Positions 1-64,000 of a DNA stretch of 64,000 bases are shown here, piece by piece. Made by a program: the position numbers and the translations under genes. The notes beneath the pieces were generated by a model, which ran no database searches, was not told where the DNA came from, and was given only the letters and a program-made list of their open reading frames with translations. The stretch is from Eledone cirrhosa (lineage: Eukaryota). The stretch lies in contig OZ024756.1 of assembly GCA_964016885.1 (NCBI GenBank), positions 26,660,001 to 26,724,000 of the forward strand, read 5' to 3'. Each line of letters starts with the position of its first letter. The first letter of the stretch is position 1.

Positions 1-31
1 TAATAGTTTAACAAAACACAATTGCATCCAG

Positions 32-2714: not shown

Positions 2715-3740
2715 TAATAATTTACTACATCCACTGTACCTATAGATTTTATTTCTAATAATTTACTACATCCACTGTGCCTATAGATTTTATTTCTAAT
2801 AATTTACTACATCCACTGTGCCTATAGATTTTATTTCTAATAATTTACTACATCCACTGTGCCTATAGATTTTATTTCTAATAATTTACTACATCCACTG
2901 TGCCTATAGATTTTATTTCTAATAATTTACTACATCCACTGTGCCTATAGATTTTATTTCTAATAATTTACTACATCCACTGTGCCTATAGATTTTATTT
3001 CTAATAATTTACTACATCCACTGTGCCTATAGATTTTATTTCTAATAATTTACTACATCCACTGTGCCTATAGATTTTATTTCTAATAATTTACTACATC
3101 CACTGTGCCTATAGATTTTATTTCTAATAATTTACTACATCCACTGTGCCTATAGATTTTATTTCTAATAATTTACTACATCCACTGTGCCTATAGATTT
3201 TATTTCTAATAATTTACTACATCCACTGTGCCTATAGATTTTATTTCTAATAATTTACTACACCCATTGTACCTATAGATTTTATTTCTAATAATTCACT
3301 ACACCCATTGTACCTAAAGATTTTATTTCTAATAATTCACTACACCCATTGTACCTAAAGATTTTATTTCTAATAATTCACTACACCTATTGTACCTATA
3401 GATTTTATTTCTAATAATTTACTACACCCATTGTACCTATAGATTTTATTTCCAATAATTTACTACACCCATTGTACCTATAGATTTTATTTCCAATAAT
3501 TTACTACACCCATTGTACCTATAGATTTTATTTCTAATAATTCACTACACCCGTTGTACCTATAGATTTTATTTCCAATAATTTACTACATCCGTTGTAC
3601 CTATAGATTTTATTTCTAATAATTCACTACACCCATTGTACCTATAGATTTTATTTCCAATAATTTACTACATCCGTTGTACCTAAAGATTTTATTTCCA
3701 ATAATTTACTACATCCGTTGTACGTATAGATTTAATTTCA
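2715..3740 (+). repeat. 41-bp tandem minisatellite, about 25 copies
   Basis: Unit taataatttactacatccactgtgcctatagattttatttc, period 41 (2715, 2756, ...). Confidence 0.97.
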
Positions 3741-3763
3741 ATAAATTATATGAAGTTTATCAT

Positions 3764-6307: not shown

Positions 6308-7488
<1,181 letters not shown>

Positions 7489-8304
7489 CCGAATGCAATT
7501 GTTTTGTTAAACTATTACTCTCAAAGAAGGTTTTACCACATTTATCAGTGTGGCATGGATTGACACCAGGGTGCACACAATTATGTATGTTATTCAAGTA
7601 CATCTCCAGAATTATTTTCTTCAGATATCACAGTGATATGTTTTCTCACTTATGTGGCTATATATGTGTATAGTTAATCAAGTACATCAAGAAAATTATT
7701 CAAGAGAATTATTTTCTTCAGATATCACAGAAATCACTATAGTATAGTTTATCACCAGTGAAATTATATTTGTAATTTGTCTGGATATTTTCACATTAAT
7801 ATCACAGAAGTATTATCCTTCTATAACCTCAATTTAAAATTCACACCAACTTAATCAAGGTTATAGAGAAGAATTATTTAAGATCTTGATAAAGTCACTC
7901 TTCTGGTCTCAAAATCTGCGAAGTTACTTGATATATCTTGTATCAACATTTACAATTTCAATGTCACCACAAAACCTGAAATAAAAAAACAAAAAACTGA
8001 GAGTAATATCTAATAGCTAAGAGATTAGGCACCAGGTTTACTTGGGGAGAGGTAGAATATTTCTGAGATATATTTAGTGTAACACAGACTGTGACATGGC
8101 TTACACTTTGAAAGACAGAAACAACACATCTTTGCTAGCTGAGTCAACTGGAGCGACGGAGTAAAGTGTCTTGCTCAACGGCACAACATGCAACCTATGA
8201 GTTGGCCATCAAGCTAGCTATACCTTGACCACAAAGCCACGCTCTTTCACACAGGCAGAAACATGGTGAAAACATAGATTGTGTAGGAGGGATGTTATCT
8301 GCGG

Positions 8305-10614: not shown

Positions 10615-11928
10615 TTAATTCTCATATTTTATTGGTTCATTTTCATGAAACTTTTTTTTATTATTTTTATGATTAATGAAACACTTATGTTTAATGAAAC
10701 ACTTATTATTAGAGAAGCCTTTATCACAGACATCGCAATGATATTGTTTTTCACCTGTGTGAACATTTTTGTGATGAACTAAACTCTGATTGTTTGTGTA
10801 CGATTTACCACAAATATCACAGCTATATGATTTCTCACCACTGAAATGTACATGATGAGTTAAATGACCTTTCTGGGTGAATGTTTTACCACAGACATCA
10901 CAGTGGTATGGAGTTTCACCTGTGTGGATACGTAGATGTAGTGTTAAATTACCTTTCTGAGAGAATGCTTTTCCACAGATATCACAGCGGTATGGTTTCT
11001 CTCCTGTGTGAACTCGTTTGTGGACAGTTACTTTACTTTTGGAAGAGAATCCATTCCCACAAATATCACAGCGGTATGGTTTCTCCTCTGTATGAAGAGA
11101 CTTGTGGTAAGTCAATGAACGTCTGTCAGCAAATGATTGACCACAGATGTCACATTTGTATGGTTTCTCTGTGTGAACTCGTTTGTGAATAGTAGCTGAA
11201 CTACTATCAGAGAATGACTTTCCACAGATGTAACAGCTGTATGGTTTCTCTCCTGTGTGACTACGTATGTGACGAATTAATTTCTGACTCTCAGCAAAGG
11301 ATTTACCACAATTATCACAACTGTATGGTCTCTCACCTGTGTGACTACGTATATGTTGAGTTAAATGACCTTTCTGTGAGAATGTTTTACCACAGATATC
11401 ACAGTGGTATGGTTTCTCCCCTGTATGAATACGTTTGTGTTTAGTTACTGAACTACTATCTGAGAATGTTTTACCACAGATATTACAACTGTATGGTTTC
11501 TCTCCTGTGTGAATACGTACGTGTGTAGTTAATGCAAAACTTCGAGCGAATGAGCTACCACAGATACCACAGTGGTATGGTTTCTCTCTTGTGTGAACAC
11601 GTTTGTGGAAAATTATTCCAGTCCTATCAGCGAATGATTGATCACACATATCACAATCATATGGTTTCTCTCCTGTGTGAACACGTTTGTGTCTCTGTAA
11701 TAAAGTAGGAAAAGAGAAACTTTTACCACAGATATCACAGTGGTATGGTTTCTCTCCTGTATGCACACGCTTGTGCATAATGAGTGAACTATTGCTAGAG
11801 ATTGATTTACCACAGATATCACAGTGGTATGGTTTCTCTCCAGTGTGAATAACTTTGTGCTCTTTTAATGTACTACTATCAGAGAATGTTTTACTACAGA
11901 AAACACAGTGGTATGTGTTCTTATCCAT
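10615..11928 (-). CDS. Tandem C2H2 zinc-finger protein (about 15 fingers, 13 canonical; 437 aa)
   Basis: Intact ORF. The first ATG (MDKNTYHC) at 11928 is homologous to the paralog starts, and the ORF-track GTG at 12006 is not used. Terminal-exon acceptor tttcag at 12927. Confidence 0.9.
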
Positions 11929-12760
11929 CTGAATGCAATTGTGTTTTGTTAAACTATTACACTCAAAGAAGGTTTTACCACATTTATCAGTGGAATGTTT
12001 TCTCACCAGTGTGTAATCGTGTATAATTAATCAACTACAACTAGACAATTATTTTCTACATTTATCACAGTGGTATTGTTTTGTCAGCTGTGTGGCTATG
12101 TATGTATATAGTTAATTAAGTACAGCTATATATTTATCTTCTACAGATACAGTGGTACATTTTCTCACCTGTGTGGCTATATATGTGTATGGTTAATCAA
12201 GTACATCCAGACAATTATTTTCTACAGATATCAGTGGTATTGTTTTGTCACCTGTGTGGCCACATATATGTATAGTTAATCAAGTACATCTAGATAATTA
12301 TTTTCTATAGATACACAATGGCATGTGTTTAGTTAATCCATTTTCAGCACTGAATATTTTCCCACAGATATTACAATGATATGCTTTCTTCCCTGTCTGA
12401 AGTTGTTTATCAATGATCAAACTCAGTCATTCAGAAAATACTTTCACACATATCATAGTTGTATGGTATCTCACCTGTGTGTATACATACATTATTTGTT
12501 AAATGACCATTTTGAGAGAATGTTTCACCACAGATATCAAAGCGGTATGGTTTTTTATGTGTTTTTCACCAGTGTGTAGTTAATGCAATACTTTTAGGAA
12601 ATTATTTTCTACAAATATTACAGTGGTATTGTTTCTCACCACTATGTAAGTTGATGCGTCTATTTAATCCAATACTTTCAAAGAATGTTTTCCCACAGAG
12701 ATCACTATAGTATGGTCTATCAACAGTGTGAGTATATTTGTAATTTGTCTGGCGATTTCT
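11929..12760 (-). pseudogene. Decayed zinc-finger repeats in the 5' UTR of the intact minus-strand ZNF gene
   Basis: Repeated degenerate ggtgagaaa..taccactgt..tgtagaaaa units with stops, lying between the acceptor at 12927 and the ATG. An equivalent but shorter tract lies at 7489-7800. Confidence 0.75.
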
Positions 12761-16600: not shown

Positions 16601-17019
16601 CTTGTGACAGCGTAGAATTTAGTGGAAGAGAGTATTCCAGCAACGAAATCCTTGTTATTATTAATGGCTTAGTATCAGGTGAAGCTATTGAGACTCGTTA
16701 GCTGTTCAGCACTACTTTTGATTAGTATCCGGGGATCCAGTAATAATGTCGGCTATTCTAGCATTTTGGTCTCACTATCACCCAGTCATACTGATGCACA
16801 AAAATATGAATAGCTACTCCAACACCTTATCTGTGCTATCAGTTACAGTTATTTCTATATCTGTCTTACCTTTCCTCAACTTCTTTTAACTAACACCAAC
16901 ACTTCCTCTTATAATGTATAATTAAGTGTGCATGTCTTCTCTTCTTTATTTTATATTATTTCCAACACATTTAAATTGATTTGTTCTATTTGCAAATGAT
17001 AAACTTCATATAATTTAAT

Positions 17020-17425
17020 TAAAATAAAATCTATAGGTACCAGGGATGTAGTAAATTATTAAAAAATCTATAGGTACTGTGGATGTAGTAAATTATTATA
17101 AATAAAATATATAGGTAGAATGGATGTAGTAAACTATTAGAAACTATATAGGTACAATGAATGTAGCGAATTATTAGAAATGTTATCTATAGGTACAATG
17201 AATGTAGTAAATTATTAGAAATAAAATCTATAGGTACAATGGGTGTAGTAAATTATTAGAAATAAAATCTATAGGTACAATGGGTGTAGTAAATTATTAG
17301 AAATAAAATCTATAGGTACAATGAATGTAGTAAATTATTAGAAATAAAATCTATAGGTACAATGGGTGTAGTAAATTATTAGAAATAAAATCTATAGGTA
17401 CAAAGGGTGTAGTAAATTATTAGAA
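17020..17425 (-). repeat. Inverted second array of the 41-bp minisatellite (about 10 copies)
   Basis: gaaataaaatctataggtacaatgggtgtagtaaattatta is the reverse complement of the 2715-3740 unit variant. Confidence 0.95.
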
Positions 17426-18345: not shown

Positions 18346-18810
18346 TCAGCATGTACCCATGGGAGGTCGGGTACCCTGTATTACTGCGTGACGCCAGAAG
18401 TCATGGTCGTGTGTCATTGACTTTGAGAGGTGTAGTTGGGTAAGGTCGGCTTTTATCACCTCATCCCAAGTCATCTTGGGTCTCCCCACTCCGCGGTTTC
18501 CATCAACTTCTAGTGCTCTGCACCTTTTTATGCAGCTGTCATCCTTCATACGCATCACATGTCCATACCAGCGTAACCGCCTCTCCTGCACGCAGCATTT
18601 GATTCCTCTTATGCTCAGTCTCTCTCTCAATTCATTTATGCTTTGTCGTTCACGTATATTACTGTTACACATCCATCGGAGCATGCAGGCTTCGTTTCTC
18701 TCTAATCTACGTAAGTCTTCCATCTTCAGCGCCCAGGTCTCACTACCATGCAACAGCTATTACACTCTGTCCCCACTGCAGATTAAGTCACCTAGATAGC
18801 AGAACTTTTG
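18346..18810 (-). mobile_element. RTE-clade LINE 3' ORF fragment
   Basis: HGSETWAL...MLRWMC...RRLRWYGHVMR...GRPKMTW, the typical RTE C-terminus. Confidence 0.88.
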
Positions 18811-46040: not shown

Positions 46041-49000
46041 ATATATATATATATATTATTAACACTGATTAAAAGTTTAAACAAGCAATTTCTTTCACCC
46101 TAAAGCAAGATCTTCTGAAACTGTAGAATATCAATCTGTAGATGCAGAAATATTTTTAAAAATTACTTACAAATATTACCTTTAGAAAATAGGACATAAT
46201 GGTAATGTGTGAAGACGTTCTATTGAGATTAGCGAAGTGTATGCAAGGAGAATTATGTCATTAAGTGAAGCATGAAGAACAAATTCTTGCTATGAAAAGA
46301 TTGGATTAATAATTTTCCTTTTAGAAGAGCCGAATATTTTTCAACTACTATTAATAGAATATAATCATACAAAGATACTGAAGGTATTAATAATAGTATA
46401 TAACTAAAGTACGTAAACAGTATCAAGAAAATCCTGCGATTCTTGAAGTCATTTGTGATATTTGTTCTGCCACGAGTTACAAACACTCCCACCACCAGTA
46501 ATATAGTGAACTAGTGACTGCTCTGTTAAAAAGCCGTAACCAAGACAGAAGTTAAGGGCTGAAACACTCGCTTGCATGGTGGAGTTTCTTTGAAGAACTG
46601 CTGTCCAGCTCTCCTGAAGGTTTCTTACTACAGCCAATTGGAATATAAAAGAAATAAATAACATGTAAACAAATTTTAAATAGATACAAACAACTCTTTT
46701 TGTGTTGTTTGATTTTTATTTATATTCCTGACATTTTTTATGCAATGATGGGAGGAAGGTGACTGTCAACTGCTTGTTTCATCTTAACTCTAGCATTTAA
46801 ACCAGCCAGAATTCTCTCACCTCTGTTCAAACTAGCTGTAACCAGTCACTCATACTGATGTTAAGGTATTGTTCTCAAAATCTCATAGATTCGATATTAT
46901 GTGAGATAAAGTGTTTACCACAAAAATACAATAGTATATATAGAATAATGTAAATCCTAAAGGGTTAAATACCCAAACAAAATGGTGGCCTTTTGCTGAT
47001 TAAAAATAAATAGCTATGATAATGACATTGTAAAATGTGACTGAAGAAAAATAAAAAGAGTCAACTACCACCACACACACACACACACACACTATCATTA
47101 TCAGAAGGTTTATGATATTGATGAGGGAAGACCTGTGCAGAGGTTGTCAGAGCTGATTTCAAATCACTGAACCTCATAGCGAGGTCAAAGAAAGACAGAG
47201 ATGCTGTGCCAGAAAGGACCCATGCAGGCAAGGAAAAACGAGATATAAAACTATGATGATAAAAAATAATAATAATGAAATTACTGTGTACAGTGCTCAG
47301 GTACACTACAACTCATCAAAGGTGCATGTATAGTACATAGAATAATGCACAAATGTCAGGAAAGTGAACAGTCTATGAGTCATAATATGCGTGTGTATGG
47401 AGGGACATATTTTCTTTTTCGTCTTATTATATCATTATCTAATCGACTTACCCTTCCCAAAAATTGTTGGCCTTGTGCCTAAATCAGAAACCATTGTTTT
47501 TATAACTATATGCCGCAAAGCATTGGTAGAACGCCGGAGAAAATGCTTTGTGACATACAGTAACAGCCTTTTATGGTTTGAGTTCAAATCCCACCAAGGT
47601 TTTATGGGGCCGATAAAATAAAGTACCAGTAATGCATTGGACCAATTTAATTGACTTAGCTCTCCCCTTCAAATTGCTGGCCTTTTGCCTAAATCAGAAG
47701 CCATCATTATAATCATTAGTGTCAGCAATTTATCATTTGTATTGTTTATTCACAGCTCAGTCTTGAACCAACCAGCATCTTAAATATGACCAAAGGCATT
47801 TTGCCATTATATTTCAGTCATGACCATAATGTACCTAGGACTACACTTCTAATGTGTCCTGGAGTTTTTAATCAGGTGAAGAGAGACTTGGCTGTTATTT
47901 CTAACATATCAATAGACTGTAAAAATTCCTGTCACTGGCTTCATGGTTATGATGACATTGGCAAATCTATAGCTTATTTCTTTATGTCAATCTAGCTCAG
48001 ACATGGTGAGATGATGCTAACAATGAGATGAAAGACATTTCATAATAGAAGAAAGCTCTATTAACAAAATCTACTATAATATCTGTGTATATATATATAT
48101 ACATATACACACATATTCATACATGTCTGTGTGTGTATGTATAGGTACTTGTGTGGTCAGAGTAGCAACAAAAGGGACAGAATCAAGTTCGGTGAGATGC
48201 AATTCGGCTCTGTGTCAAGCAAGGATACTCTTTCTGGTGTTAACAACTGCGAGAGAAATACTTAGCTATGGGTAAGCCACTGTACATCTGAAGAAGGTTT
48301 TTAACACTCTCAAGCTTGATGAAAGTCTTGTAGAGGACTATGCAAGGTAGAAGTTGGAAATGAGTACAGTAATGAATTTGAAGAGTAGGTTGGGCTCAGT
48401 CTTCAGTTCTCTTCTGTTTATTTAGTGCTGGTGTCAAGATAAAAGTAAGATGCAGGCACCCAGCCTGTCTGGGAGATCAGTAGCCCTGCTTAAGTAATGG
48501 CCTGTTCTCTGAAGACCCATTCAACTCTTGCTAACAAGGAACACAGATGTTAAATGATGAAGATGATATAGAGATATGGTGGTCATGCTGGTGCAGTGAC
48601 AAATAAAAAAAAAAAACACCCAGTCCGCACAAATAATAGCAGTTTGAATACATACAAGATTATTATTTTTTTAGGGTCCGACAGATTTATCTATAATATT
48701 GAAAAGATTAGATTCTAAGTTAAACGAACGTATAACAGATAACAGTTTAAATACTGATAGGTAAATGGACCAAGAAACAAGGAGAGAAGAAAATGAACCG
48801 CATATATTACATTTCTGAAATCAACAATTCGGCAGTAAGATTCAAATAAATTCTGGTTCAGTACTCTTATTTTATATTTGCGGAGAGAGAGGGAGGGGTT
48901 GAGAGAACATGTAAGAGTATAAGCAATGTATGAGGGAGACAGAGAGGGGGTTGGGGTGGGGGGAAGGTTCCAGAAGGAAATAATAATAACAATGGGAAAG

Positions 49001-49580
49001 TTTACGAGAAGATTATTTTTATAAATGTCCGACAGATTCATCCGTATTGAAAAGTTAAACGAACATATAAATAATAGCAGTTTAAATACGAGAAGATTAT
49101 TTTTTCTTTTTGAGGGTCCGACAGATTTATCCATAATATTGAAAAGATTAGATTCTAAGTTAAACGAACATATATATATATATTGATGATGATGATATAT
49201 ATATATATACATACATACATGTGCGTATATATCAGCATGACCGGATGGTTGGAACAGGTAAAAGAGTAAAAGAGTGTGTATGTTTAGTCACAGGATAGAA
49301 GTTAATAGCTTTTGCTTGCACTCAACACTGCAGTGGATGGAAGTCCTCCAGGGTCACTAAGAGAGTGATTAAGCACAATATAGCTCACCACATGCAGCTG
49401 AGGGTTCATGTTTGACTTGCCGAAGCATAGATTCAGTGGCAAAGAATAAAATCTTGTTTATCAAAGAAGCTATGTAGAGCTAGACTTAAGAAGAGCAAGT
49501 GAAGAGCTTGGCTCAAGCACAGCAAGTGTTTGTTGGCTCAACTGCAGGCAGCTGAGCGAGGTTTTGTCCCGCTTTAAATT

Positions 49581-52500
49581 TTAATATTTTACATCGTAGA
49601 TATTGAAGCGATCATAGTTCTCCATTCTGCCCATTTCCAGGCTGCTGGTTTCAGAATCAGAGTTATCATAATCTGGTAGAAGAGTTTGTGAAATATCTTC
49701 GATGTTTGTCACTTGCACTTTCACTGAAATAATATTAATAACAATAATAATAATAATAATTGTTTCTACTTTTGGCACAAGGCCATCAATTACCCAGTAC
49801 ATTACTGGTACTTTATTTTATCGACCCCGTAAGGATGAAAGGCAAAGTTGACCTCGGCGGGATTTGAACTCAGAATGGAAAGAGCCGTAACTCCATGCGT
49901 CAAAGCTTGGCGTCCGACCCTCTACTGATACTGCCAACCCAACACCCTGACGATAATAATAATAATAACAATAAAAATAATAATAATGGTTTCTTATGTA
50001 GGCACAAGGCCAGCAATTTTGGGGGGGAGGGGAAAGTCGATTAAACAGACCCCAGTGTATTACTGGTACTTTATTTTATCAACCTCGTAAGGACGAAAGG
50101 CAAAGCTAACATCGGCAGGATTTGAACCCAGAACGTAAAGGGCCATGACTCTATGCTGCAAAGCATGGTGTGTGACGCTTTATCGATTACTGCCAATCCA
50201 GCGCCCTAACAATAAAAATAATAACACTAATGGTTTCTTATTTAGGCACAAGGCCAGCAATTTTGGAGAGGGGAAAATCAATTAAATTAACTCCAGTGCA
50301 TTACTGGTGCTTTATTTCATCAACCCTATAAGGGTGGGATTTTAACTGAGAATGTAAAGGGCTATAACTCTATGCTGCAAAACGTTTGATGCTCTACCGA
50401 TACTGCCAATTCATTGCCCTTAATGGTTTCTGATTCAGGCACAAGGCCAACAATTTGGTGAGAGTGGTAAGTCAATTAAATCAAACCCACCATGCAACCC
50501 CGTAAGGATGAAAAGCAAACCTAACCACAATGGAATTTGAACTCAGATCATAAATTTGTGTTTTGTGTAGTCAACTACTTCAAATTGTGGGCAACCTATG
50601 GTAACCATATCTACTTCCCTAAAGAATATCCGGTGTGGTTTGACCATGTCCACATTGGCATATCTGAGAAATTCAGTCGGTACATGCCAGACAGAAAACT
50701 TTGAGAAGGTTTTTGAGGCTTTTACACCCTCCTCTCCTATATACTAGTCTTACACAGTCCCAGTATGCATCTCAAACACAGTTCCAGTTGTTCGCTAACA
50801 CTAAAGTGCGGAACATTCCTAGAAAGGCCTATAGATGCCTGAAGAAATCTGACCATCTTACTCCTGTCGGGCCATAGGCAGCAAGTAGTCTAAAAGCATG
50901 TCCTTTGCTGCTGGCCACATCCAGCATCCTCGACTTACTTTTGGGTCCAAAAAGATGGTCTGGATTGTGAGATCCAGGCCTTTGTGAAACAATACAGCGC
51001 AACTCTACCTCCCGAGAAAGGAGAATAGGTTAAAGATATTTAAAATATTTGATGACAACACACACTAAAACAAAGTGGAGTAAAATACCACTTGAGAGAG
51101 AGAGAGAGTATACCTTTAAGTGTGAAGGGGTTGTCTTCATCAGGAATGATTTCCTCCTCTTCAAATTCATCATCATCATCATCATCATCATCAATTTGGT
51201 CCATTTCAAATCGTTCAAAGTCTTTATAAAGATTCGGAATCTGAGAAAATAGATGGAGCAATAGCAGAAGAAAATTAAGGGTTTCTATATCTGGAAAAAA
51301 TTCACACATTAAGGGTTTCTAGATCTGGCAAAAATAAACAAATTAAGTATTTCTAGATCTGAAAAAAACCCCGCAAATTAAAGGTTTCTAAATCTGGCAA
51401 AAATCCACAAATTAATAATGAAACAATTATAATTTTTAGTAAATCCCTTCAAACTCTTTATTAGTAATACTAAAGGGTTAAAGCTGCAAGAAGAAAAACA
51501 ATTCTCAGGTTTTGGACAGGAAGGGCTCTGTTTTAAATGTTAGACTTCCCTTTTTCTTCACGGTATAAAATGTATTTCCATCTATATGTAAATTTCTGCG
51601 ATTCTGTGACAATACGTAAAGAAAGGAGTAGTTTGACTACCTCATACTACCCCTCTCTTTACGTCTGTTGCCTGTGTAAATGTATGTGTGTGTAAAAGGA
51701 AGGAAGGTGGTGGTGAAAAAACTATAGCAAAATAGTGGTTGGCATTCCATTTATGCTGTGTATGTGTGTGTTTGTGTGAATGTATGTCTGAGTGTGTATT
51801 TTTGTGTGTCTGTGTTTGCACGTTTATATTTATATACTTATACATATAAATACATACACATATGTGTCAGCGTGTTGAAAAATATCCTAGTTGTTAAAAT
51901 TATTCCATTATGAGGTATATGTAAAACATGAAATACAGGGCAGCAAATGGAATGAATCTATTGCAACTTAAAAGTAAGAACATGATTGAAATTATCTCTA
52001 CCTCATGATAATGCTGGTATGTTTATAGAGCCATAATAAAACCCTCTTACCTTTTCTGTAGTTCTCAAGAAACGAGGCCAGTAAGCTGGGACTGTTTTAG
52101 CAAGGGACATCAGTATTTCATTTGGTTTGTGGCGTATTATACACTTGGAGATCACAACCTTCTCATAAAGTTCATAGGTTGCTAAAATGGGAGCATTGCT
52201 GTCCATGGGACTGAAGAGGTGAAAAGATGAAAAACAACATATGACAGCAATTTTGACAACATTTGAATATGAACACTTCATTGGTATACAGTAGTTATTG
52301 ACAGTAGTATGTATAATGTGTTAGTAGTAGATTGCAGCTATAGTAAAGGTAGATGATGGTGGCATGGATGTATAATGGTAGCTATATTAAAGATATAAGG
52401 TAGTATGGATATATGATGATAGCTGTATTAGAGATATATATTGCTATAGGTATATAGTGGTAGCTATAGTAAAGATATGTGACAATGGTATAGGTATATG

Positions 52501-55500
52501 ATGGTAACTATAGTAAAGATATATGACAGTGGTATAGCTATATGATGGTGCATAATAAAACACACCCTGTACTGTCAGTAAAGAAGTAGTGAAGGTAGTA
52601 TGATAAAATGTACATTTTATTTTGACACGGCTGGATGACCTACCTAATGTCAACCACTTTACAGAGTTCCCTGGGAGCATTTTATCAGAGCAAGCATCAG
52701 CATTACCACATTACAGAATGTATTGGGTGTATTTTATTGACAACAGTACTACCATGTTTCAGAGTGTATTGGGTGTATTTTATTGTGGCAACAGTACTAC
52801 CACGTTTCAGAGTGTATTGGGTGCATTCTATTGTGACAATAGTCACAGAGTTTATTGTGTGGATTTTATTGACAACAGTACTACCAGGTTACAGAGTGTA
52901 CTGTGTGCATTTTATCATGGTACCACCACTATTTCTTTACAGAGTGCACTGGGTGCATTTTATTCCATTTTGGCATGGTTGTGAAAATATGGAACATAAT
53001 GAGGAGAGGTTTGGCCAAAAAAGGTGAATGTTGAAGGAAATGAAGAATGACAATTGGTTGGACATGATGGAGTATTGAAATGACAGAATGGAAGGAATTC
53101 TTCACCAGAATCAACTTACCGAATGTGGATTGTTGTTTCATGAAAGTCTACTGTGAATTCTTTTGTTCGCTCTATTTCTGCCGTTACAAGCAACCGGAAT
53201 TTGTTCTGGCACCAGTAAATTGGTGGAGAACGGCTAGAAAAATCAAACAGTTCAATAGTTATTTAAAATTTCATTAGGAAGTAAAAGGGTAGGGTAAAGA
53301 CACCCCCCCCCCCTGCTTCAGTCACGAATGACCATGGGATTGGCATCTAGAAAGTTCCACTCCAAGGCACAGGTCCAGGCAAGGTTGTTAGTGAAAGACC
53401 AGGAGATGCCCATGCATACCAGCCTCCCCTCTCCATGTCTCCGATGATGTCCAAGGGAAAGGCAAAGGCCGATACTGCTTGGCACCAGCCAGTGACGTCG
53501 AAACTCATTTCTACAGTTGAGTGAACTGAAGAACTGAAGAACACAACACAACACCCATTCCAAGAAACAAACTCACAACCTCTCAATTGCAAGCCCAGCA
53601 CTCTAACCACTAAGCCATACACCTTCAAAAACCTTGTTTCGCCCTAGGATGTATCAAGGCAATAAAGCCATTAAAATACAAGGGGTTACTGAGAACTCAA
53701 GGGCAGTAGATTAGCTGAGTTTCTAGAACCATGGACAAATACTTAGCAGTATTTGTTCTGGCAATTTACGTTTTGAGTTCAAATCTCGCTGAGGTCAACT
53801 TTACCATTCATCTTTGTGCAGTAGATAAAATATATTTGTTTCTACCTTTGGCACAAGGCCAGCAATTACCCAGTGCATTACTGGTACTTTATTTCATCGA
53901 CCCCATGAGGATGAAAGGCAAAGTTAACCTTGGCGGGATTTGAACTCAGAATGGCAAGGGACATAACTCTATGCGTCAAAGCATGGCGTCCGACCCTCTA
54001 CCGATACTGCCAATCCACCGCAGTAGATAAAATATAGTACCAGTTAGTTACTGAGGTTGATATAAAATCAACTTCTCCTTCCCCCTCAATTACAGGCCCG
54101 GTGCCAATATTAAATACAATTATTAAGCTGGTGTTTGGAACATAACTCAACAAAGGTTCTTAAATAAAATAATTGTTTCTACTTTAAGCAGAAGCCCAGC
54201 AATTACCCAGTACATTACTGGTACATTATTTTATCGACCCAGTAAGGATGAAAAGCAAAGTTAACCTCAGTGGGATTTGAACTCAGACTGTAAAGGGACG
54301 TAACTCTATGCTAGAAAGCATGGCGTCCAACCCTCCACCGATACTGCCAATTCACCGCCAATAAAATAATGGTAGAAGGCTTTTAGTTAAATATAAACAC
54401 TTTAAAATAAATAGCTTTGTTTAGAACCAGGGATGGTTGCCTTTCATCCTTGTGTGGTAGATAAAATAAAGTACCAGTTAGGTACTGGGGTTGGTATAAT
54501 CAACTTTCTCCTTCCCACCATTACACTCACCACTACCAATGTGGCATTACATGAAAATATACCACTTACCTGGTGGTCATTTGGGGGAGGTTGTCGGACG
54601 AAGGCGTTTGTAGGACGTCCAGGCATGGAGTGACCTTCACAAACAAGCTCTCTAGTAACTCTTCACACAGCCGCAGTGAAGCACCATCATAATCATCATC
54701 ATCACCACTGCCGCTGCCACCACCACCACCACTGCCGCTGCCACCACCACCACCACCACCATCACCACTGCCGCTGCCACCACCACCACCACCACCATCA
54801 CCACTGCCGCTGCCACCACCACCACCACCACCACCACCACCACTGCCGCTGCCACCACCACCACCACCACCACCATCACCACTGCCACCACCACCACCAC
54901 CACCACTGCGGCTGCCACCACCACCACCACTGCCGCCGCCACTGTCACCACCACCACCATCATCACCACCACCGCCACCATAACCACTGCCGCCGCCACT
55001 GTCACCATCACCACTGCCACCACCACCGCCGCCATCACCACCACTACCACCATCATCATCATTAACATCAACATCATCATCATCACCATCATCCACAAGA
55101 TCATGATGATCCCCATCTTCTACATCACCACCGCCGCCGCCACCAACATCATCATCACCACCATGATCATCGTCCATAGGATCACCACCACCACCACCAT
55201 CATCATCATCCATAAGATCACGATCACCATCATCTACATCATCAACATCACCATTGTCCATAAGATCACAATCATCACCACTATCACCACCACCACCATC
55301 ATCATCATCGTCCATAAGATCACGATCATCATCATCATCAAGATAATGATCACCATCACCATCATCATCATCATCATCAACATCACCATTGTCCATAAGA
55401 TCATAATCATCGCCATCACTATCACCATCATTATCGCCATCACTATCATCACCACCATCACCATCATCGTCCATAAGATCATAATCATCACCATCACCAT

Positions 55501-58500
55501 CGCCATCACTATCATCACCACCATCACCATCACTATCATGATGATCACTATGATGATCACCATCATCGGCAGCAGCAGTGGTAGAAGAGACTGGTAAACC
55601 AGCAGCAGCATCACTGGCCACAGATTTCTTAAAACTGAAATGAAATGTACAAAATTATCATATACTAGCAGTGGTACCCGGCATTGCACGGGATAAGGTA
55701 TTTTGGAACGCGGGCCGCCAACAGACCTAATCGTGGAAAAACTGCATGCCTGGACAATATGTAAAGAAAATAAAGTGAATACTCTGATGGCTGGATAATT
55801 TTAAGATTTTCCTCGATGAAACAAGAAAAATGCAGGTTTTCACCTAATGCGGGCCCTAGGGGATCAAGAAAATGAATTTTTTTTATGTGCATAATATGCC
55901 TTGAAATTTCGGGAAAATCGGCTAGACGTAACGCCTCAAAAAAGCCCTAAAAAGCTGAAAAAATGAAGTTTTTCACCTAATGTGGGCGCTAGGCCATAAA
56001 AAAGTTGGATTTTCTTTGCTCACGGTATGAAGAAGAGACTGACTAATACATAGCTGTGTCAAGAACATGACAACCTCCCTAGTGTTGGTGATCTACATCA
56101 GGCATGTCAAACAGAGGGCCACATGGGTCACATATGTGTTGTCTGAGGACCACACATGACAACTAATTGCACACATTACAACTTTATTTTATATTACAAA
56201 GATGAAACATGCTCACGCTGTAAACATCTTTGTGCAGGCTGCAGGTGTGCTTGTGAAAGGGCTGCATGTTTGACATGCCTGATCTACATGATAAACACAC
56301 CCAGTACACTCTGTAAAGTGGTTGGTGATAGGAAGGGCATCTAGCCTTAGAAAGCTTGCCAAATAAAGGGTTGGGAGGACCCTTCAGTTTTGTGAAGGAC
56401 ATGACAACATCCCTAGTGTTCGTGCCATGATAAAATGTACACAGTAGAATATGGAACTATGTAAGCGAGATGCAGGCCCCACACCTACTCCCATCATCCA
56501 GCCTGTCTGGGAGGGAGGTAGCCTTTCTTCAGTACAGACTCAGCTTGTGAAGACCTGTCCTGAAAAAAAGGGGTCATGGCTAGTCCTTTTCTTTATCCAA
56601 TTAACTGATAAACACCCCCAGCAATTCTCAAAAAGAACACTCACCTCAATAGAATTGGAACAATGTTTAATTCTAGGAGCAATGTTTTATTTTTCCGGCT
56701 TTCCACAGAAAGATTCTTGCAGACTTTAAGACATGTATAAACACACTAGGGAAGAGAATTAGAAGAATGAGAAATAGTATGGTATGGTGTGGTGTGGTGT
56801 GGTGTGGTGTGGTGTGGTGTGGTATGGTATGCTGTAATGTGGTGTGGTTTGGTATAGTATGGTGTGGTGTGGTATGGTATGGTGTGGTGTGGTGTGGTGT
56901 GGTGTGGTATGGTATGGTATGGTATGGTGTGGTGTGGTATGGTGTGGTGTGGTATGGTATGGGGTGGTATGGTATGATTTAATGTGGTGTGGTGTGGTAT
57001 GGTATGGTATGGTGTGGTGTGGTATGGTGTGGTATGGTATGGTATGGTGTGGTATGGTATGGTATGTTATGGTGTGGTATGGTATGGTGTGGTATGGTAT
57101 GGTATGGTGTGGTGTGGTATGGTATGGTATGCTGTGATGTGGTATGGTGTGGTGTGGTATGGTATGGTGTGGTGTGGTGTGGTGTGGTGTGGTGTGGTAT
57201 GGTGTAATGTAGTATGGTATGGTATGCTGTGATGTGGTATGGTGTGGTGTGGTATGGTATGGAGTGGTATGGTGTGGTGTGGTGTGGTATGGTGTAATGT
57301 AGTATGGTATAGTATGTTATGATGCAGTGTAGTGTGGTATAGTAAGAAGAAAAACAACAACAAAAACAGCAACAACATTAGTAACAGCAGCAACATGTCA
57401 AACATGTGAAGAAATATATGTAAAAAAAATGAAGCCAGTATAAAAGAAGGTGGTTAGTTACCTTGCTACAACTTCTGTTTTTGATGATCTGCAGTATACA
57501 ATGTATTGGGGTTTCACGCTTTAGTTCATCAAGACCACTGTGTAAGGAGAAGACAAGAGACATCACCATCACAACCACAACCATCATCATCATCACCACA
57601 ACCACTATCATCATTATCACCATCACAACCACTACTACTATCATCATCACCATCACAACCACCACTACTATCATCATCAGAGCCACTACTACTATCATCA
57701 TCATCACCATCACAGCCACCACTACTATCATCATCATCATCATCATCACCACCATCACAGCCACTACTACTATCATCATCATCATCATCATCATCACCAT
57801 CACAGCCACTACTACTATCATCATCATCATCATCACCATCACAGCCACTACTACTATCATCATCATCATCACCACAATCACTACTACTACTATCATCATC
57901 ACCATCACAACCACTACTACTACTACCATCATCATTATCACTATCACCAACAACACAACCATTACCATCATCATCATCATCATCCAACACTACCAACTCC
58001 ATCATAATCACTACCAACATCATCATCATCACCAACAACATAATCATTACAAACACCATCAACTTCGTAAGTTGACCATATAATCATGTGGTAACTTGTA
58101 CAATGTCTGAATAAAAAGTTTTATACATTTTTTTATAACTTTTTATAAAGTTATTTATATATTGAACATTCGTAAAAATTCTAAATAAAATCTTCCACAC
58201 TAGCATGGGTTAGATGGGAGTTGTCCTACTTGAGGCAAGGCTGGTTGGGTGACCGTGTCTCGCTCGTATAGGACTATCTGGCAGGTTTTCTACGGCTGGA
58301 TGATGTATATATATATATATATCAAATTGAAATTCCCATTACCTTTCCAATTTCATAATAATGTTGAACAATGACAGGTATGTTTCCAAGAAGTGGTGGT
58401 CACCAACATCAACAAAATCCATTATCAAATGAGGACACATTTGAGATTCAAGTAGCAAAATTGTCAGCCTGCAATTGAAACAAAAATTTGGATCTTCATA

Positions 58501-59733
58501 AGTAAAAAAAAAAAAAATATTTTTACCTTTTCTTACCACATTTCTAATGAAATATATTGAAATATAAAAAAAAAAAGAGATAGCTCACACTTATGTAGGT
58601 TTAGTTAGCCTCCTATGAGGTTGTATCACATTGGAGACTTCTCAGGTGTTTTAATGACAAGGGCTGGGCCCCAGTCCTATCACAAAGTGCCAACAAGAAA
58701 TAAAACACCATGCTTAAGAACAGAACCTACTGCCCAATCCAGGAATCAGAGATTAAACGATAATGTTGGTCATCTGGTTTGGTTTAGAACTCTGCAAGAT
58801 GGTAGTGCTGGTGCCACAACAAAAAAGTAACCAGTCCACCCTACAAGGTGGTAGTGCTGGTGCCACGATAAAAAAGCAGCCAGTCCACACTGTAAGGTGG
58901 TAGTGCTGGTGCCACAATATAAAGTACCCAGTCCACACTGTAAGGTGGTAGTGCTGATGCCAAGATAAAAAGCACCCAGTCCACCCTATAACGTGGTAGT
59001 GTTGGTGCCACAACAAAAGGCAACCAGTTTACTCTGTAATGGTAGTGCTGATGCCAAGATAAAAAGCACCCAGTCCACACTGTAAGGAGGTAGTGCTGGT
59101 GCCACAACAAAAGGCACCCAGTTTACTCTGTAAGGTGGTAGTGCTAGTGCCACAACAAAAGGCACTCAGTACATGTTGTAATGTGATTGGTGTTAGGAAG
59201 AAGATCCAGCCATAAAAAAAAAAAACGTAAAATGGAGTACGTAAGGCCAGGCATTATCACCTGACCTGCATGGCACCATAACGTGACAATCTGTCTGACC
59301 CATGGAAACATGAAAAATAGGTGTTAAATGATGGTGGTGATGATGGTGATGGTGATGGTGGTGGTGGTGATGATGGTGATGGTGATGATGATGATGAAAA
59401 AAATAAAGAGAAGTCTTACCAGATATTGTCCTGACAGAGAGAGTATAGTAAATGACAAACTGATATTTTCACCTGGAAAATGAAAAGAAATTCAACATGA
59501 GGGAAGACAGCAAGAATTGATATTACACATTTTCTGGTGGATGAGGGTAGTGGTGGAGGAGCTTCTTACAAATCAGTAGGGGCAGAACATCGGACACCAT
59601 ACTGGTTAGCATAGAGTTACGTCCCTTTACGTTCTTTGAAAGAGGAGGACAAGGAGAATGTATGTGTGTGTATATATATATATATCATTATCGTCATTGT
59701 TTAATGTCTATTTTCCACGCTAGCATGGGTTTA

Positions 59734-59798
<65 letters not shown>

Positions 59799-59912
59799 GC
59801 GGTGCCCCAGCATGGCCTCAGCCGGATGGCTGAAACAGGTAAAAGAGTAAAAGAGTAAAAGAGTAAACACACACACATATATATAAATACACACACACAC
59901 ACGCGCGCGCAC

Positions 59913-59943
<31 letters not shown>

Positions 59944-62900
59944 GTTGTTGTATGGTTGCAATAAATGCGTCCATAGGCGGTATGCCATTTGAGCACTTGA
60001 TGCTCGCGCAGAGCAGAGTTTATTATTATAGATAAGTATAGTATAATAATGAAATTATTGTGTAAAGTGCTCAGGTGCACTAAACGAGGAATCAATCGGA
60101 TGAAATGCTTTGAAAGCGCAAAACATATCTGAGGAACTTGGGAATGCAGAGTAAGGTTTGATCTGTAACAGATCCTGCCTTGAGCTGATCGTCAGAGAAA
60201 CATATGTAATATGTTAATAAATTGTGTTTTGATGCATCACTGATTCCTCGTTATCTATAATATAATATATATATATGAAAGAAAATGAAAATTCTTACTT
60301 TGGATGAAAAGGAACTGTTCAATAATTTACAAATTGTTAAAAACAAAGAATAAGCTGGGCTTGGACAATTCTCTTCATTTTCCACTCTGGAGATAAATAG
60401 GAAAAAAAAAAGAGCTATTAGCAATTATAACATTACTCCATTATCCCTAGCATTTAAACCGGCCGTATCCAGCCAGAACTCTCTCACCCCTTTCTGTTCA
60501 AACCAGCCATAACTGGCTGCTCATACTGATGTTATGATATTGTTCTCCAAATAAATAATATCAAAATCTCAGATTCGATATTATGTGAGATAATTATGTA
60601 AGATAAAGCATTTACCACAAAAATACAATACTAAATATAGAGTAATCATCATCATCATCATCATCATCGTTTAACGTCCATCTTCCACGCTTGCATGGGT
60701 TAGGCAGTTTTGTTCCATTTTATGCGGGAATGGTTGGAAGACCATGTCTCGCTCGCACAAAAGCGTCTCTGGCAGGTTTTTTTTTACAGCTGGATGCCCT
60801 TCCTAACACCAACCACATTTACAGTGTGAACTGGGAGCCTTTTCACCGTGTCTCCTACAGGGCCACCTTACAGTGTGGACTGTTGTGTCATCGACACAGT
60901 GGATGGAACGGGAGAGAGAGGATGGGGGTAGGGGGTGGGCTTTACATTGGGTTAAGAGGTGCCTACTGACTGTAGATTTGTATGCAATGGCAGTCGGGTC
61001 TTCTGTACAACTGCTGGCGCCAAAGGTCTCGATCCAGTGTCATTGTCTTAGAGAGGTGTAGGTGAGCAAGGTCAGTTTTTATCATCTCGTCCCTGTAAAT
61101 TCTAAAGGGTTATATAAAGGTTGTGGATTGGCTGAAAAATAAGAACATCAGAGAAAATACCTTGTAATATTTGGTTACTCGCCTTTATAATAATAATAAT
61201 TGTTTCTACTTTTGGCACAAGGCCAGCAATTATCCCAGTGCATTACTGGTACCTTATTTTATCGACCCCGTAAGGATGAAAGGCAAAGTTAACCTCGGCG
61301 GGATTTGAACTCAGAATGGCAAGAGCCGTAACTCTATGCGTCAAAGCATGGCATCCGACCCTCTACCGATACTGCCAATCCACTGCCCTTTATAATAATA
61401 ATAATAATTATTATTATTATTTCTACTTCAGGCACAAGGCCAGCATTTGAAGTTGAAGGGAAAGGCAATTAAATAGACCCCCAGTGCATTACTGGAACTT
61501 TATTTTATCAATCCAATAAGGATGAAAGGCAAAGCTAACCTTGACGTGATTTGAACTCAAACATTACAGCCGGTTTGAACAGGAAGAGGTGAGAGACTTG
61601 TGGCTGGATATGGCCGGTTTGAACAGAAAGAGGTGAGAGAATTGTGGCTGGATATGGCCGGTTTAAATGTTAAAGGGTTAATTTAAAAACAGGCACAAAG
61701 ATGAAAGAAGGGGTTAATATGATATGATAATTGTTTGTCAACATACCTGTCTGTAAAGCTGTGTAAATCTGGAATCAGTTGTATCACAGTTTCGAGGATG
61801 GTCTCATCTTTGTTCTTGACAACCATCGGAAATGGATCCGCAATTAAACAAGAGGGAGGGAAAAAAAAAGAACTATAAATGCGTGTTTACATTATAGTAT
61901 TCTGTTACACACACACACACACACACACATATATTTGGAAATGGAGGAAGGGGTTTAGTCAATACAAAAACTTACCATTTCTAAAATATTTCTTAAAACT
62001 TTGTAGAGGCCACAGTTTTCCAGGTCTGAATAAATACTGTGGGAAAAATAAAAATAAAAAAATAATAACAACAACAACTCTAACAATAATGGTTTCTGAT
62101 TTAAGCACAAGGCCAGTAATTTTTGGGGGAAGGGAAGGTCAATTAAATCAATTCCCCAGTGCATTACTGGTACTTTATTTTATCGACCCCATAAGGATGA
62201 AAGGCAAAGCTAACCTCGGCAGGATTTGAACTCAGAATGTAAAGGCACGTAATTATTTAGGAACAAGGCCAGCAATTTTGAGGAAGGGGAATGTTGAGTA
62301 TATCTATCCCAGTACTTATTTTATTGATCACAGAAGGATGAAAATAAAAAAACATAAAAAGTTAGAACAAATCCCAGACACCATGCTGTCTGGTACTTTA
62401 ACAATTTTGTCAAATAATAAATAATGATTTCTAGCATATGCACAAGGCCAGCAATTTGAAGGAAAGGGACACCAGTAAAGTAGTGTGGTGCCTCAGCATG
62501 ACTGCAGTCTAATAACTGAAACCAGTAAAGTAGTGTGGTGCCCCAGCATGACCGCAGTCTAATAACTGAAACCAGTAAAGTAGTGTGGTGCCCCAGCATG
62601 ACCGCAGTCTAATAACTGAAACCAGTAAAGTAGTGTGGTGCCCCAGCATGACCGCAGTCTAATAACTGAAACCAGTAAAAGTGTGGTGCCCCAGCATGGC
62701 CGCAGTCTAATAACTGAAAACAGTAAAAGTGTGGTGCCCCAGCATGGCCGCTATCTAATGAGTGAAACCAGCAAAAGAGTGTGGTGCCCCAGCATGGCCG
62801 CTATTTAATGAATGAAACCAGTAAAAAGAAAGAAAAAAAAAAGAACAATACCTTTGATGTGGAAAAAGTCCTTTCAGGATAGTTACCAGGGTGTCGAAGA

Positions 62901-63467
62901 TAACTGAGTTACCTGTGTAGTTTAACAGTTTGAGCAGGTGTCCAGGGTACTTAGCGGTTATAAGTTTGTCTGGATACCTGGGTGGGAAAATGAAAGCAAC
63001 AAAAGTAACAATAACAGCAACAAAAAAAGCAGAGCTAGAAAACAGGAAGCTATAAGTAAAAAAATCCCTGTGAATCCCCTTTCCCTTTCCATAGTTCTAA
63101 CGAATGACACTGCCCTGCCCTCTTACACTACATACAGGGATGCTGAAAAGTTCTTGGCTTAGGGTAAAAGAAAATACAGGAAGATCGGTTAAAAGAAAAT
63201 AGAGGAGGATCAGTTAATTATGATTATATTCAATATATTCCCCTCTCAGATTCACACACTTATTGTAGAGGTCCTACCTCTCCTATAAAAGTAACAGCCC
63301 TATCCTTTCGTGATACCCTTAAAGACAAGAAATTTTTAGCACCCCAGTACAAAGCACTAACTTTATAGACTAAGGAGCAGACATGGCAATAATGATATTA
63401 CTTACTTGAGACATAGTTTTGTGTATTTCCCAAGTAAATTAGCAGTGAATTCGAGACCAAAATTGTC
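49581..63467 (-). CDS. 5'-partial gene: ARM/helical-repeat region, Asp/Gly-rich insert, C-terminal CS (p23-like) domain and acidic tail; 13 exons, 788 aa in window
   Basis: Exons (-): 63467-63406, 62977-62852, 61872-61747, 60386-60299, 59472-59420, 58468-58343, 57537-57462, 56745-56645, 55634-54570, 53233-53120, 52210-52051, 51240-51114, 49723-49581 (TAA); all GT-AG, phases chain without a stop (2367 nt). CS-like PPIYWCQ...V.F...LYEKV...EILMSLAK..YWPRFLR...DFERF; ARM-like KNLSVESRKNKTLLLELNIVPILL. Confidence 0.82.
50530..51020 (-). mobile_element. Possible L1/Tx1-like endonuclease remnant
   Basis: Minus translation includes LDVASSKGHAFRLLAAYGP..FFRHL, reminiscent of the RL..VYAP endonuclease motif; heavily decayed. 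Confidence 0.45.
53835..54019 (-). mobile_element. Young Meta-like SINE inserted in an oppositely oriented SINE
   Basis: 17-bp TSD gcagtagataaaatata at 53818-53834 and 54020-54036. Confidence 0.85.
56778..57340 (+). repeat. Pentanucleotide microsatellite (TGGTG/TGGTA)n
   Basis: Direct inspection. Confidence 0.97.
57560..58062 (+). repeat. Intronic trinucleotide mosaic (CAT/CAC/TAC)n
   Basis: Direct inspection; it ends about 25 nt from the acceptor at 57537. Confidence 0.93.
58795..59180 (+). repeat. ~47-bp tandem repeat amplified from a SINE-internal segment
   Basis: Unit aaaagcacccagtccacactgtaaggtggtagtgctggtgccac, running into the SINE tail. A related minus-strand array lies at about 52650-52970. 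Confidence 0.85.
60122..60215 (+). ncRNA. Type I hammerhead ribozyme motif with palindromic stem III and long stem II
   Basis: AACAUAU-CUGAGGA-(61 nt incl. gatctg-taa-cagatc)-GAAA-CAUAUG-UA/AUAUGUU, immediately followed by AATAAA and enclosed by a 12-bp inverted repeat (60083-60094 / 60241-60252). Confidence 0.68.
62471..62825 (+). repeat. 50-bp tandem repeat (about 7 copies) derived from a SINE tail
   Basis: Unit accagtaaagtagtgtggtgccccagcatgaccgcagtctaataactgaa at 62471, 62521, 62571... Confidence 0.93.
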
Positions 63468-63538
63468 CTGCAAATACAAAAAATACAATGTAAACAAGTT
63501 TATTCCTTTGTTACTATAAATCTAATGAAAGTTACTTA

Positions 63539-63747
63539 CCATATATACTCGAATATAAGCCAAGGAATATGTGACCAAAAAAAAACAATCGATGGTAAAA
63601 TGGTGGGTGGCGTTTATATACACCATCTAAACAATGTGTTAATTAGCTGCCTTAGCTTATAAATGGGGTTTGGATTTTTGCCGATTTCTCAGACATAAAA
63701 TAGGGAGGGATAAGGAAGGGAGTTGGCTTATATTCGTGTATATATGG
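63539..63747. mobile_element. Tc1/pogo-like MITE
   Basis: TIRs ccatatatactcgaatataagcc / ggcttatattcgtgtatatatgg (1 mismatch), with TA on both flanks. A partial copy starts near 37078. Confidence 0.85.
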
Positions 63748-64000
63748 TATTTATAATTTTGTTACTATAATTTTAATAAGAGCGTTACTGGTACTTTATT
63801 TTATCAACCTCAGAAGGCTGAAAGGCAAAATTAACCTCGGCGGGATTTGAACTCATAACATAAAGGTACATAACTCTATACTGCAAAGCATGTTGCCCGA
63901 CCATCGCTCTACCAATACTGCCAATCCTTTGCCCTAATGATATGATAATAATTGTTTCTGATTTAGGCACAAGAGCAACAATTTGGGGGAGAGAGCAAAA

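Follow-up and report, generated by a model that had tools for sequence, protein, structure and literature searches.

Probable slippage-driven lengthening of an Asp/Gly-rich coding loop in an octopod gene with a p23-type CS domain

Introduction

Coding repeats that are long and acidic, with alleles that differ in length but keep the frame, have precedents. Pig dentin phosphoprotein (DPP; exon 5 of DSPP) has in-frame length alleles of 551-594 amino acids (aa) (PMC6175968), and Aspein is 60.4% Asp, punctuated by Ser-Gly (PMC3091754). Low-complexity sequence is often gained by repeat expansion, with Ala- and Gly-rich tracts seemingly the best tolerated, according to a study of chordates (PMC3523016). 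Here, an Asp/Gly-rich loop of 296 codons is described from a single exon (positions 55634-54570, minus strand) of an octopod gene that also encodes a p23-type CS domain. The gene lies in a 64,000-nucleotide (nt) stretch of the genome of Eledone cirrhosa (GenBank assembly GCA_964016885.1, contig OZ024756.1, positions 26,660,001 to 26,724,000 of the forward strand), hereafter the window, in which an earlier note, made from the letters alone, had drawn attention to the exon. On balance it is probable that the loop grew by slippage, is tolerated as a polyanionic, disordered and passive spacer, and belongs to an exon that is spliced in whole.

Like DPP and Aspein, the loop is a long, presumably disordered, Asp-rich coding repeat (87 of the 172 codons of its acidic block encode Asp). 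Those proteins, however, are tooth and shell matrix proteins in which the repeat is the functional body, whereas here it would form an internal loop of a protein whose domains appear typical of the cytosol; it accounts for 296 of at least 654 residues and has conserved, predicted folded domains on either side. The likeness is one of composition and implies no sequence homology. With slippage-derived coding expansions the locus shares codon purity, duplications in triplet register and a Gly/Ala seed tract; it differs from them in scale (a gain of about 263 aa between octopods that are about 73% identical), in being Asp-based, and in its position within a predicted helical repeat instead of at one end of the protein. 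What sets it apart is how large the change is for such close relatives, together with the predicted helical-repeat placement in an unstudied gene. In the openly available literature, supplements aside, no paper was found on the Octopus bimaculoides counterpart (LOC106875577) or on octopus CS-domain p23 proteins. Such papers on p23 or CS-armadillo co-chaperones as were found do not, by their titles and the opening lines of their abstracts, describe a fusion of this kind, and no title was found that refers to coding-repeat expansion in octopus.

Exon anatomy and splicing

The loop exon (54570..55634, minus strand) is 1065 nt long and symmetric, with phase 2-2, between the acceptor ttcag|55634 and the donor 54570|gtaagt. 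Its coding frame holds no stops, compared with 96 and 5 in the other two frames, and ten exons spanning 60386-49581, joined by their coordinates with a script, gave a single frame with the terminal stop alone. The coordinates, splice sites, phase and open frame claimed by the earlier note were borne out on the minus strand. Donors were scored with a generic matrix, and acceptors with a model trained on the gene's 12 other acceptors (training scores -1.2 to 9.5). The donor of the loop exon (8.9) is the best in the gene, and no internal GT scores above 1.5. The acceptor at 55634 (6.1) is the sole strong one among 28 AG sites that are in phase and stop-free to the donor, the next best of the other 27 scoring -4.3. 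The possibility that the repeat is an intron of its own was rejected, since its internal donors all score at most 1.5 and its internal acceptors at most -4.3; GC donors within the first 140 nt are poor by eye. The main argument of the earlier note, the lack of a stop in about 900 nt, is nearly weightless for reasons given below. As a gene model, the loop exon at 55634-54570 is real.

The exon is far longer than the other 12 scored exons of the gene (53-160 nt). This length is part of the case for a different reading, which we regard as rather unlikely, in which the loop exon is mostly skipped by joining 56645 to 53233, or the repeat is removed via weak sites, so that the long loop is rarely translated. 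Both of the splice sites are strong, and skipping would cost the protein a conserved closing helix (26/33 residues identical to the ortholog); none of the 27 weak in-phase AG sites inside the exon that the skipping reading could draw on exceeds -4.3. A length divisible by 3 and phases 2-2 are compatible with skipping, and RNA G-quadruplexes predicted in the Gly-rich part could affect splicing. Zinc-finger open frames of 470-530 codons elsewhere in the window suggest in turn that long exons are usable.

Length change relative to Octopus bimaculoides

A phmmer search with a 53-aa query from the exon at 52209-52051 returned 2 matches. The strong one was XP_014779272.2, the product of O. bimaculoides LOC106875577 (E 7.6e-16), and the second, an unnamed 61-aa fragment (E 1e-3), was not used as evidence. 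The entries for this gene are predicted protein models and comprise UniRef100_A0A0L8GPJ9, a 'CS domain-containing protein' of 391 aa, and an older RefSeq version of 158 aa. Nine exons of the window are colinear with the 391-aa model, each with 62-81% identity (245/334 residues outside the loop), and the loop exon itself matches ortholog residues 119-209 with 62 of 90 aligned residues identical. Colinearity, the C-terminus, the loop position and the order of blocks within the loop all suggest that LOC106875577 is the ortholog. It is otherwise uncharacterised, and its models differ from the window's gene in having a 32-aa loop, no DLMD motif and no counterpart to the upstream exons. The searches run found no full-length relative in any species but O. 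bimaculoides: in a word-index search for homologs, the CS exon had no match among 6 candidates, the ortholog model compared with proteins of similar length recovered itself alone among 8000 candidates scored, and ortholog region 165-312 matched none of 251 longer proteins.

Both current ortholog models read through the same site, where they have a stretch rich in Ala, then a few Asp/His residues, a Gly run and the conserved segment that follows the loop. After a TAAA anchor, the tract measures 32 aa (charge -9) in O. bimaculoides and 296 aa (charge -99) in the window, which is the ortholog comparison of loop length that the earlier note had proposed; between the two flanking helices the distances are 53 and 316 aa, a net difference of about 263 aa. 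The acidic part precedes the glycine part in both loops, and the DLMD units are absent from that of O. bimaculoides. Downstream, the conserved segment (54572..54691, minus strand), a predicted closing helix and linker, is identical at 26 of 33 positions, on a par with the other eight compared exons (62-81%). A shorter tract at the same position of the ortholog, as slippage expansion would leave, is thus found, in one species and in predicted models. The insertion of about 310 aa proposed earlier was rejected as a new insertion because the ortholog already holds a seed loop at the same place (32 aa, or 53 aa between helices). The ninefold longer Asp/Gly loop is, as far as the sequences indicate, a length change of an existing coding loop, and its direction was probably expansion.

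Composition and growth of the loop

The repeat core occupies 296 codons (55567-54680, minus strand) and falls into two blocks. The acidic block (55052..55567, minus strand; 172 codons) contains 38 Gly besides the 87 Asp and has seven D[LP][MV]D units, five of them DLMD, spaced by 26, 27, 18, 16, 12 and 27 codons. The Gly/Ser block that follows it (54680..55051, minus strand; 124 codons) contains 87 Gly, 19 Ser and 14 Asp in higher-order units of 36-39 nt. This is the arrangement of about seven DLMD-like motifs followed by Gly-Ser blocks that had been noticed before. Windows of 24 nt around the D[LP][MV]D units match pairwise at 16-23 of 24 nt, which marks the units as serial DNA duplicates, and the exact 11-nt DLMD core is present five times and has no further copy in the window. 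Exact duplication extends to 34 nt at most in the acidic block and to 71 nt (lag 36) in the Gly/Ser block; judged by these duplicate lengths, the acidic block is probably the older phase of growth and the Gly/Ser block the younger.

Codon use is close to pure: GAT 94, GAC 7, GGT 96, GGC 28 and GGA 0, with Ser encoded by AGT/AGC alone (25) and never by TCN, and with a single Glu among 102 acidic residues. Exact self-repeats of at least 20 nt in the exon number 48, and the lag of every one is divisible by 3. A codon-pure triplet tract with duplications in multiples of 3 is the pattern of slippage expansion, and the microsatellite origin proposed by the earlier note is upheld by both features. 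The divergence of the copies in the acidic block favors stepwise growth over an assembly miscount. This bears on the least likely of the readings considered, a very improbable one, in which the assembly misstates the loop length or the gene is a decaying pseudogene with an unconstrained repeat. Near-exact 36-nt units in the Gly block could indeed be miscounted by assemblers, and an upstream exon ending at 61747 lacks an AG directly after its pyrimidine tract; miscounting, however, could not produce copies that match at only 16-23 of 24 nt, position 61814 offers an alternative in-phase AG, ten exons keep an intact frame with GT-AG sites, and identity to the ortholog stays at an even level throughout the gene.

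The net charge of the insert is -99, and its aromatic residues number 5 and its Arg residues 3. Its charge-hydropathy value (H 0.345 versus a boundary of 0.533) lies far on the disordered side, in line with the disordered and highly acidic loop foreseen by the earlier note, and a scaling law predicts a coil radius of about 58 against 15 angstrom. Self-driven phase separation of the loop is unlikely, because a charge of this size with so few aromatics and Arg would argue against self-condensation; condensation with cationic partners is conceivable. Nothing found lends support to the phase separation or cation binding that the earlier note suggested. At the RNA level, the Gly block (55051-54680) is predicted to form many two-tier G-quadruplexes (-301 kcal/mol with the option enabled versus -105 kcal/mol without it), energies that are likely overstated.

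These properties invite a functional reading, which we consider unlikely: co-option of the expanded loop, which would serve as an ATP-independent holdase or mimic of nucleic acid, capture basic clients (histones, ribosomal or zinc-finger proteins) and pass them to Hsp90 via the CS domain. In this view, the DLMD units would be repeated hydrophobic docking motifs, and the loop would condense with cationic partners. A 296-aa loop of such charge and predicted disorder, the survival of seven acidic-hydrophobic motifs and the fusion to a p23-type domain all fit this proposal, and acidic tracts in NPM1 and G3BP are reported to have such roles. DNA duplication, however, already accounts for the motif copies, the ortholog loop lacks DLMD, the near-pure GAT/GGT codons and the lone Glu have the look of raw slippage, aromatics and Arg are few, and a similar array occupies an intron.

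The open frame and an intronic control array

That intronic array of GAT, AGT and GGT triplets (57560..58079, minus strand) serves as a non-coding control. It belongs to the same triplet family as the coding loop, with similar lags, and lies 2 kb upstream of the loop exon, two exons up, where it abuts the pyrimidine tract of the acceptor at 57537. It does not share the frame of the next exon, and the ortholog goes directly from the match to the exon starting at 58468 into the match to that starting at 57537, which marks it as non-coding. One of its registers is nonetheless stop-free for 405 nt, within an open frame of 184 codons, with one register shift. The presence of an array of the same family so close by indicates a general mutational process.

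The argument that the exon repeat has no stop and is therefore coding was rejected on two grounds. First, stops are nearly unreachable from the insert codons, for which 12 of 2664 single-base neighbours are stops; the figure for the remainder of the nine compared exons is 135 of 3042. Second, the intronic array is open for 184 codons as well. An open frame here is almost no evidence of coding. One register shift was counted in 550 nt of the two non-coding triplet arrays found, and at that rate the 0 shifts in 858 nt of exon repeat have P ~0.21. The stop-free frame of the exon repeat is no more than expected by chance. More generally, genome scans should not take a stop-free GAT/GGT frame as evidence of coding.

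A probable course of events and the points against it

The course of events that we favor would begin with an ancestral surface loop between the last two helices, carrying a short low-complexity tract of Ala, Asp-His and Gly. Its GAT- and GGT-rich part would have lengthened stepwise, by triplet slippage and by duplication of units of 36-81 nt, with the DLMD motif copied along with them, until the loop reached 296 codons with its block order retained, and the same slippage process would have been at work in the neighboring intron. Expansion may have been tolerated because register changes are frame-neutral, stops seldom arise by mutation of these codons and the loop would be extruded from the fold. 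The whole exon would be spliced in, and the product would bear a polyanionic coil of about 300 aa, acting mainly as a passive spacer.

Several observations weigh against this account. Inclusion of the loop exon in mRNA is argued from splice scores and predicted gene models; two of the 12 real donors score only about 1.1, which leaves room for weak internal donors, and the exon could be skipped with no change of frame. The older 158-aa ortholog model begins downstream of the loop, and the low-complexity 5' flank of the loop is poorly conserved (8/22 ungapped). With one ortholog species found, contraction in O. bimaculoides could also explain the difference. In the intronic array, 22 of 22 lags are divisible by 3, so that lag periodicity shows no selection; the one comparison that speaks for near-neutrality of the expansion is that with this array. 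The placement of the loop within a helical repeat comes from models of low confidence (mean predicted local distance difference test scores, pLDDT, of 37 and 51), with structural Z-scores under the 13 that the alignment tool advises for helical repeats, and a Foldseek search with both ortholog models gave no match at E<=0.001.

The host protein

The exons preceding the loop exon on the minus strand encode the helical region. Three of them have been termed armadillo-like (ARM-like): 59420..59472 (53 nt; 13/17 residues identical to the ortholog, in a match to the first 17 residues of the UniRef model), 58343..58468 (126 nt; 26/42) and 57462..57537 (76 nt; 21/26). The exon directly before the loop exon (56645..56745, 101 nt, donor phase 2; 26/33) carries the helices that precede the loop. 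Structural statements derive from the ortholog models and not from the spliced protein of the window. When ortholog residues 1-200 were modeled with AlphaFold2 and four exons of the window were supplied as additional rows (mean pLDDT 51), helices fell at 84-96, 105-110 and 114-136, coil at 137-172 and a further helix at 173-186. VIA-align ranked V-ATPase subunit H (Z 11.2, root-mean-square deviation 3.6, 146 aligned), a kinesin-2 chain, which we take to be KAP3 (Z 10.3), and Vac8 (Z 9.7) first for the full model; the short model gave Z 8.6, 8.5 (the ZNFX1 ARM domain), 8.3 and 8.2. The Pfam V-ATPase_H_N profile scored the ortholog at 12.5-12.6 bits, below its cut-off of 25.7. These ARM proteins are the leading neighbors of ortholog residues 1-190, including the helix past the loop, yet Z-scores of 8-11, identities of 10-15% and non-ARM helical proteins close behind mean that no specific family can be assigned. 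Tentatively, the helical region is ARM-like, with the loop between its last two helices, and the earlier placement of the expansion inside an ARM-like repeat is supported to the extent of this low-confidence ortholog model.

The exons that follow the loop encode a p23-type CS domain that the earlier note had missed. Its first exon (53120..53233, minus strand; 114 nt) is identical to the ortholog at 27 of 38 residues, and its second (52051..52210, minus strand; 160 nt), which includes the YWPR motif, at 38 of 54. A third exon (51114..51240, minus strand; 30/40) holds the Phe equivalent to p23 F121 and an acidic tail with 8 x GAT, and the last coding exon (49581..49723, minus strand; 34/46) ends in TAA with the same C-terminus as the ortholog. 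The tail includes the gene's second poly-Asp run (51192-51169, minus strand), with 8 residues compared with 5 in the ortholog.

The ortholog reached 21.9 bits with Pfam CS (PF04969), whose cut-off is 21.3, and Pfam scans of 10 single-exon translations from the window gave no match. In the ESM Atlas, the first match of the second CS exon (0.93) belonged to a cluster with 12% PF04969 members, and the best match of the ortholog (0.76) is a lead only. The best PDB sequence matches of the ortholog were At3g03773 (E 0.0026), presumably an Arabidopsis p23, and Sba1 (E 0.065, or 0.03 with the 158-aa model), and a PDB sequence search with the CS exon alone gave no match. The position of Sba1 F121 is Phe in the ortholog, by alignment, and in the window; the position of W124 is Phe in both octopod proteins. 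In Sba1, Hsp90 binding depends on F121 and ATPase inhibition on W124 (PMC7864943). Retention of the first and replacement of the second suggest Hsp90 docking with weak or no inhibition. Co-chaperones of the p23, Sba1 and PTGES3 type have in common with this protein the CS domain, the YWPR motif, the F121-equivalent Phe and the acidic tail; they differ at the W124 position and in that their CS domain stands alone, whereas here it is fused behind the helical region, of which at least 190 further residues lie upstream in the ortholog models. The host protein is p23-type in this module and not a member of the p23 family as such. The gene would combine an ARM-like helical region, a p23-type CS domain and an acidic tail, and plausibly encodes an Hsp90 co-chaperone or client adaptor. 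An extension of this idea, which we think distinctly improbable, is an undescribed octopod ARM-plus-p23 co-chaperone with a microsatellite-born, polyanionic arm of about 300 residues within its last helical repeat, in which DLMD motifs capture basic clients or tune the hand-over to Hsp90 and length is a heritable dial that differs among alleles and species.

Upstream exons and other features of the window

Upstream candidate exons (60299..63467, minus strand) comprise 63467-63406, 62977-62852, 62036-61976, one ending at 61747, and 60386-60299. They were placed by splice signals and open frames, lie outside the ortholog models and, where scanned, gave no Pfam match. Counted over 63626-60299 there are five or six, including a possible 87-nt exon (63626-63540) followed by a 72-nt intron. 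The exon ending at 61747 (61873-61747, minus strand) has CG after a strong pyrimidine tract where a phase-0 AG acceptor is expected, and the nearest in-phase, stop-free AG is that at 61814; it may be a shorter exon, use a non-canonical site, or reflect a variant or an assembly slip. The upstream exons may extend the helical region past the O. bimaculoides models, which are possibly truncated at their 5' ends.

C2H2 zinc-finger genes with an 84-nt period are clustered at 2-1582 (plus strand), 6683-7506 (minus) and 10615-12315 (minus); the array at 6683-7506, about 800 nt long, has an open frame of 156 codons only and seems interrupted. Simple repeats are abundant and copies resembling short interspersed elements are dispersed in the window, which together with the zinc-finger arrays gives it the look of octopod DNA. 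Two related fragments, at 18346-18756 (minus) and about 45930-45340 (minus), resemble the C-terminal part of the reverse transcriptase of long interspersed elements, presumably of the RTE type. A pentamer array (TGGTG/TGGTA, 56777-57321, 103 copies) makes up most of a 716-nt intron and ends just before the acceptor at 56745, and two related 41-nt minisatellite arrays lie in opposite orientations at 2715-3748 (25 copies) and 17018-17425 (10 copies). An Rfam scan of 48000-64000 gave no match, and a tRNA scan found none.

Implications

Inclusion of the exon would mean that a helical-repeat domain can accommodate a loop ninefold longer, with about 90 extra negative charges. The short loop of the ortholog and the intronic array together amount to a built-in experiment on whether disorder born of slippage is a neutral passenger or functional. 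The combination of an ARM-like region with a p23-type CS domain may itself be an undescribed Hsp90 adaptor, and, if the arm has been co-opted after all, this octopod gene would be a case of raw repeat expansion caught turning into a chaperone module.

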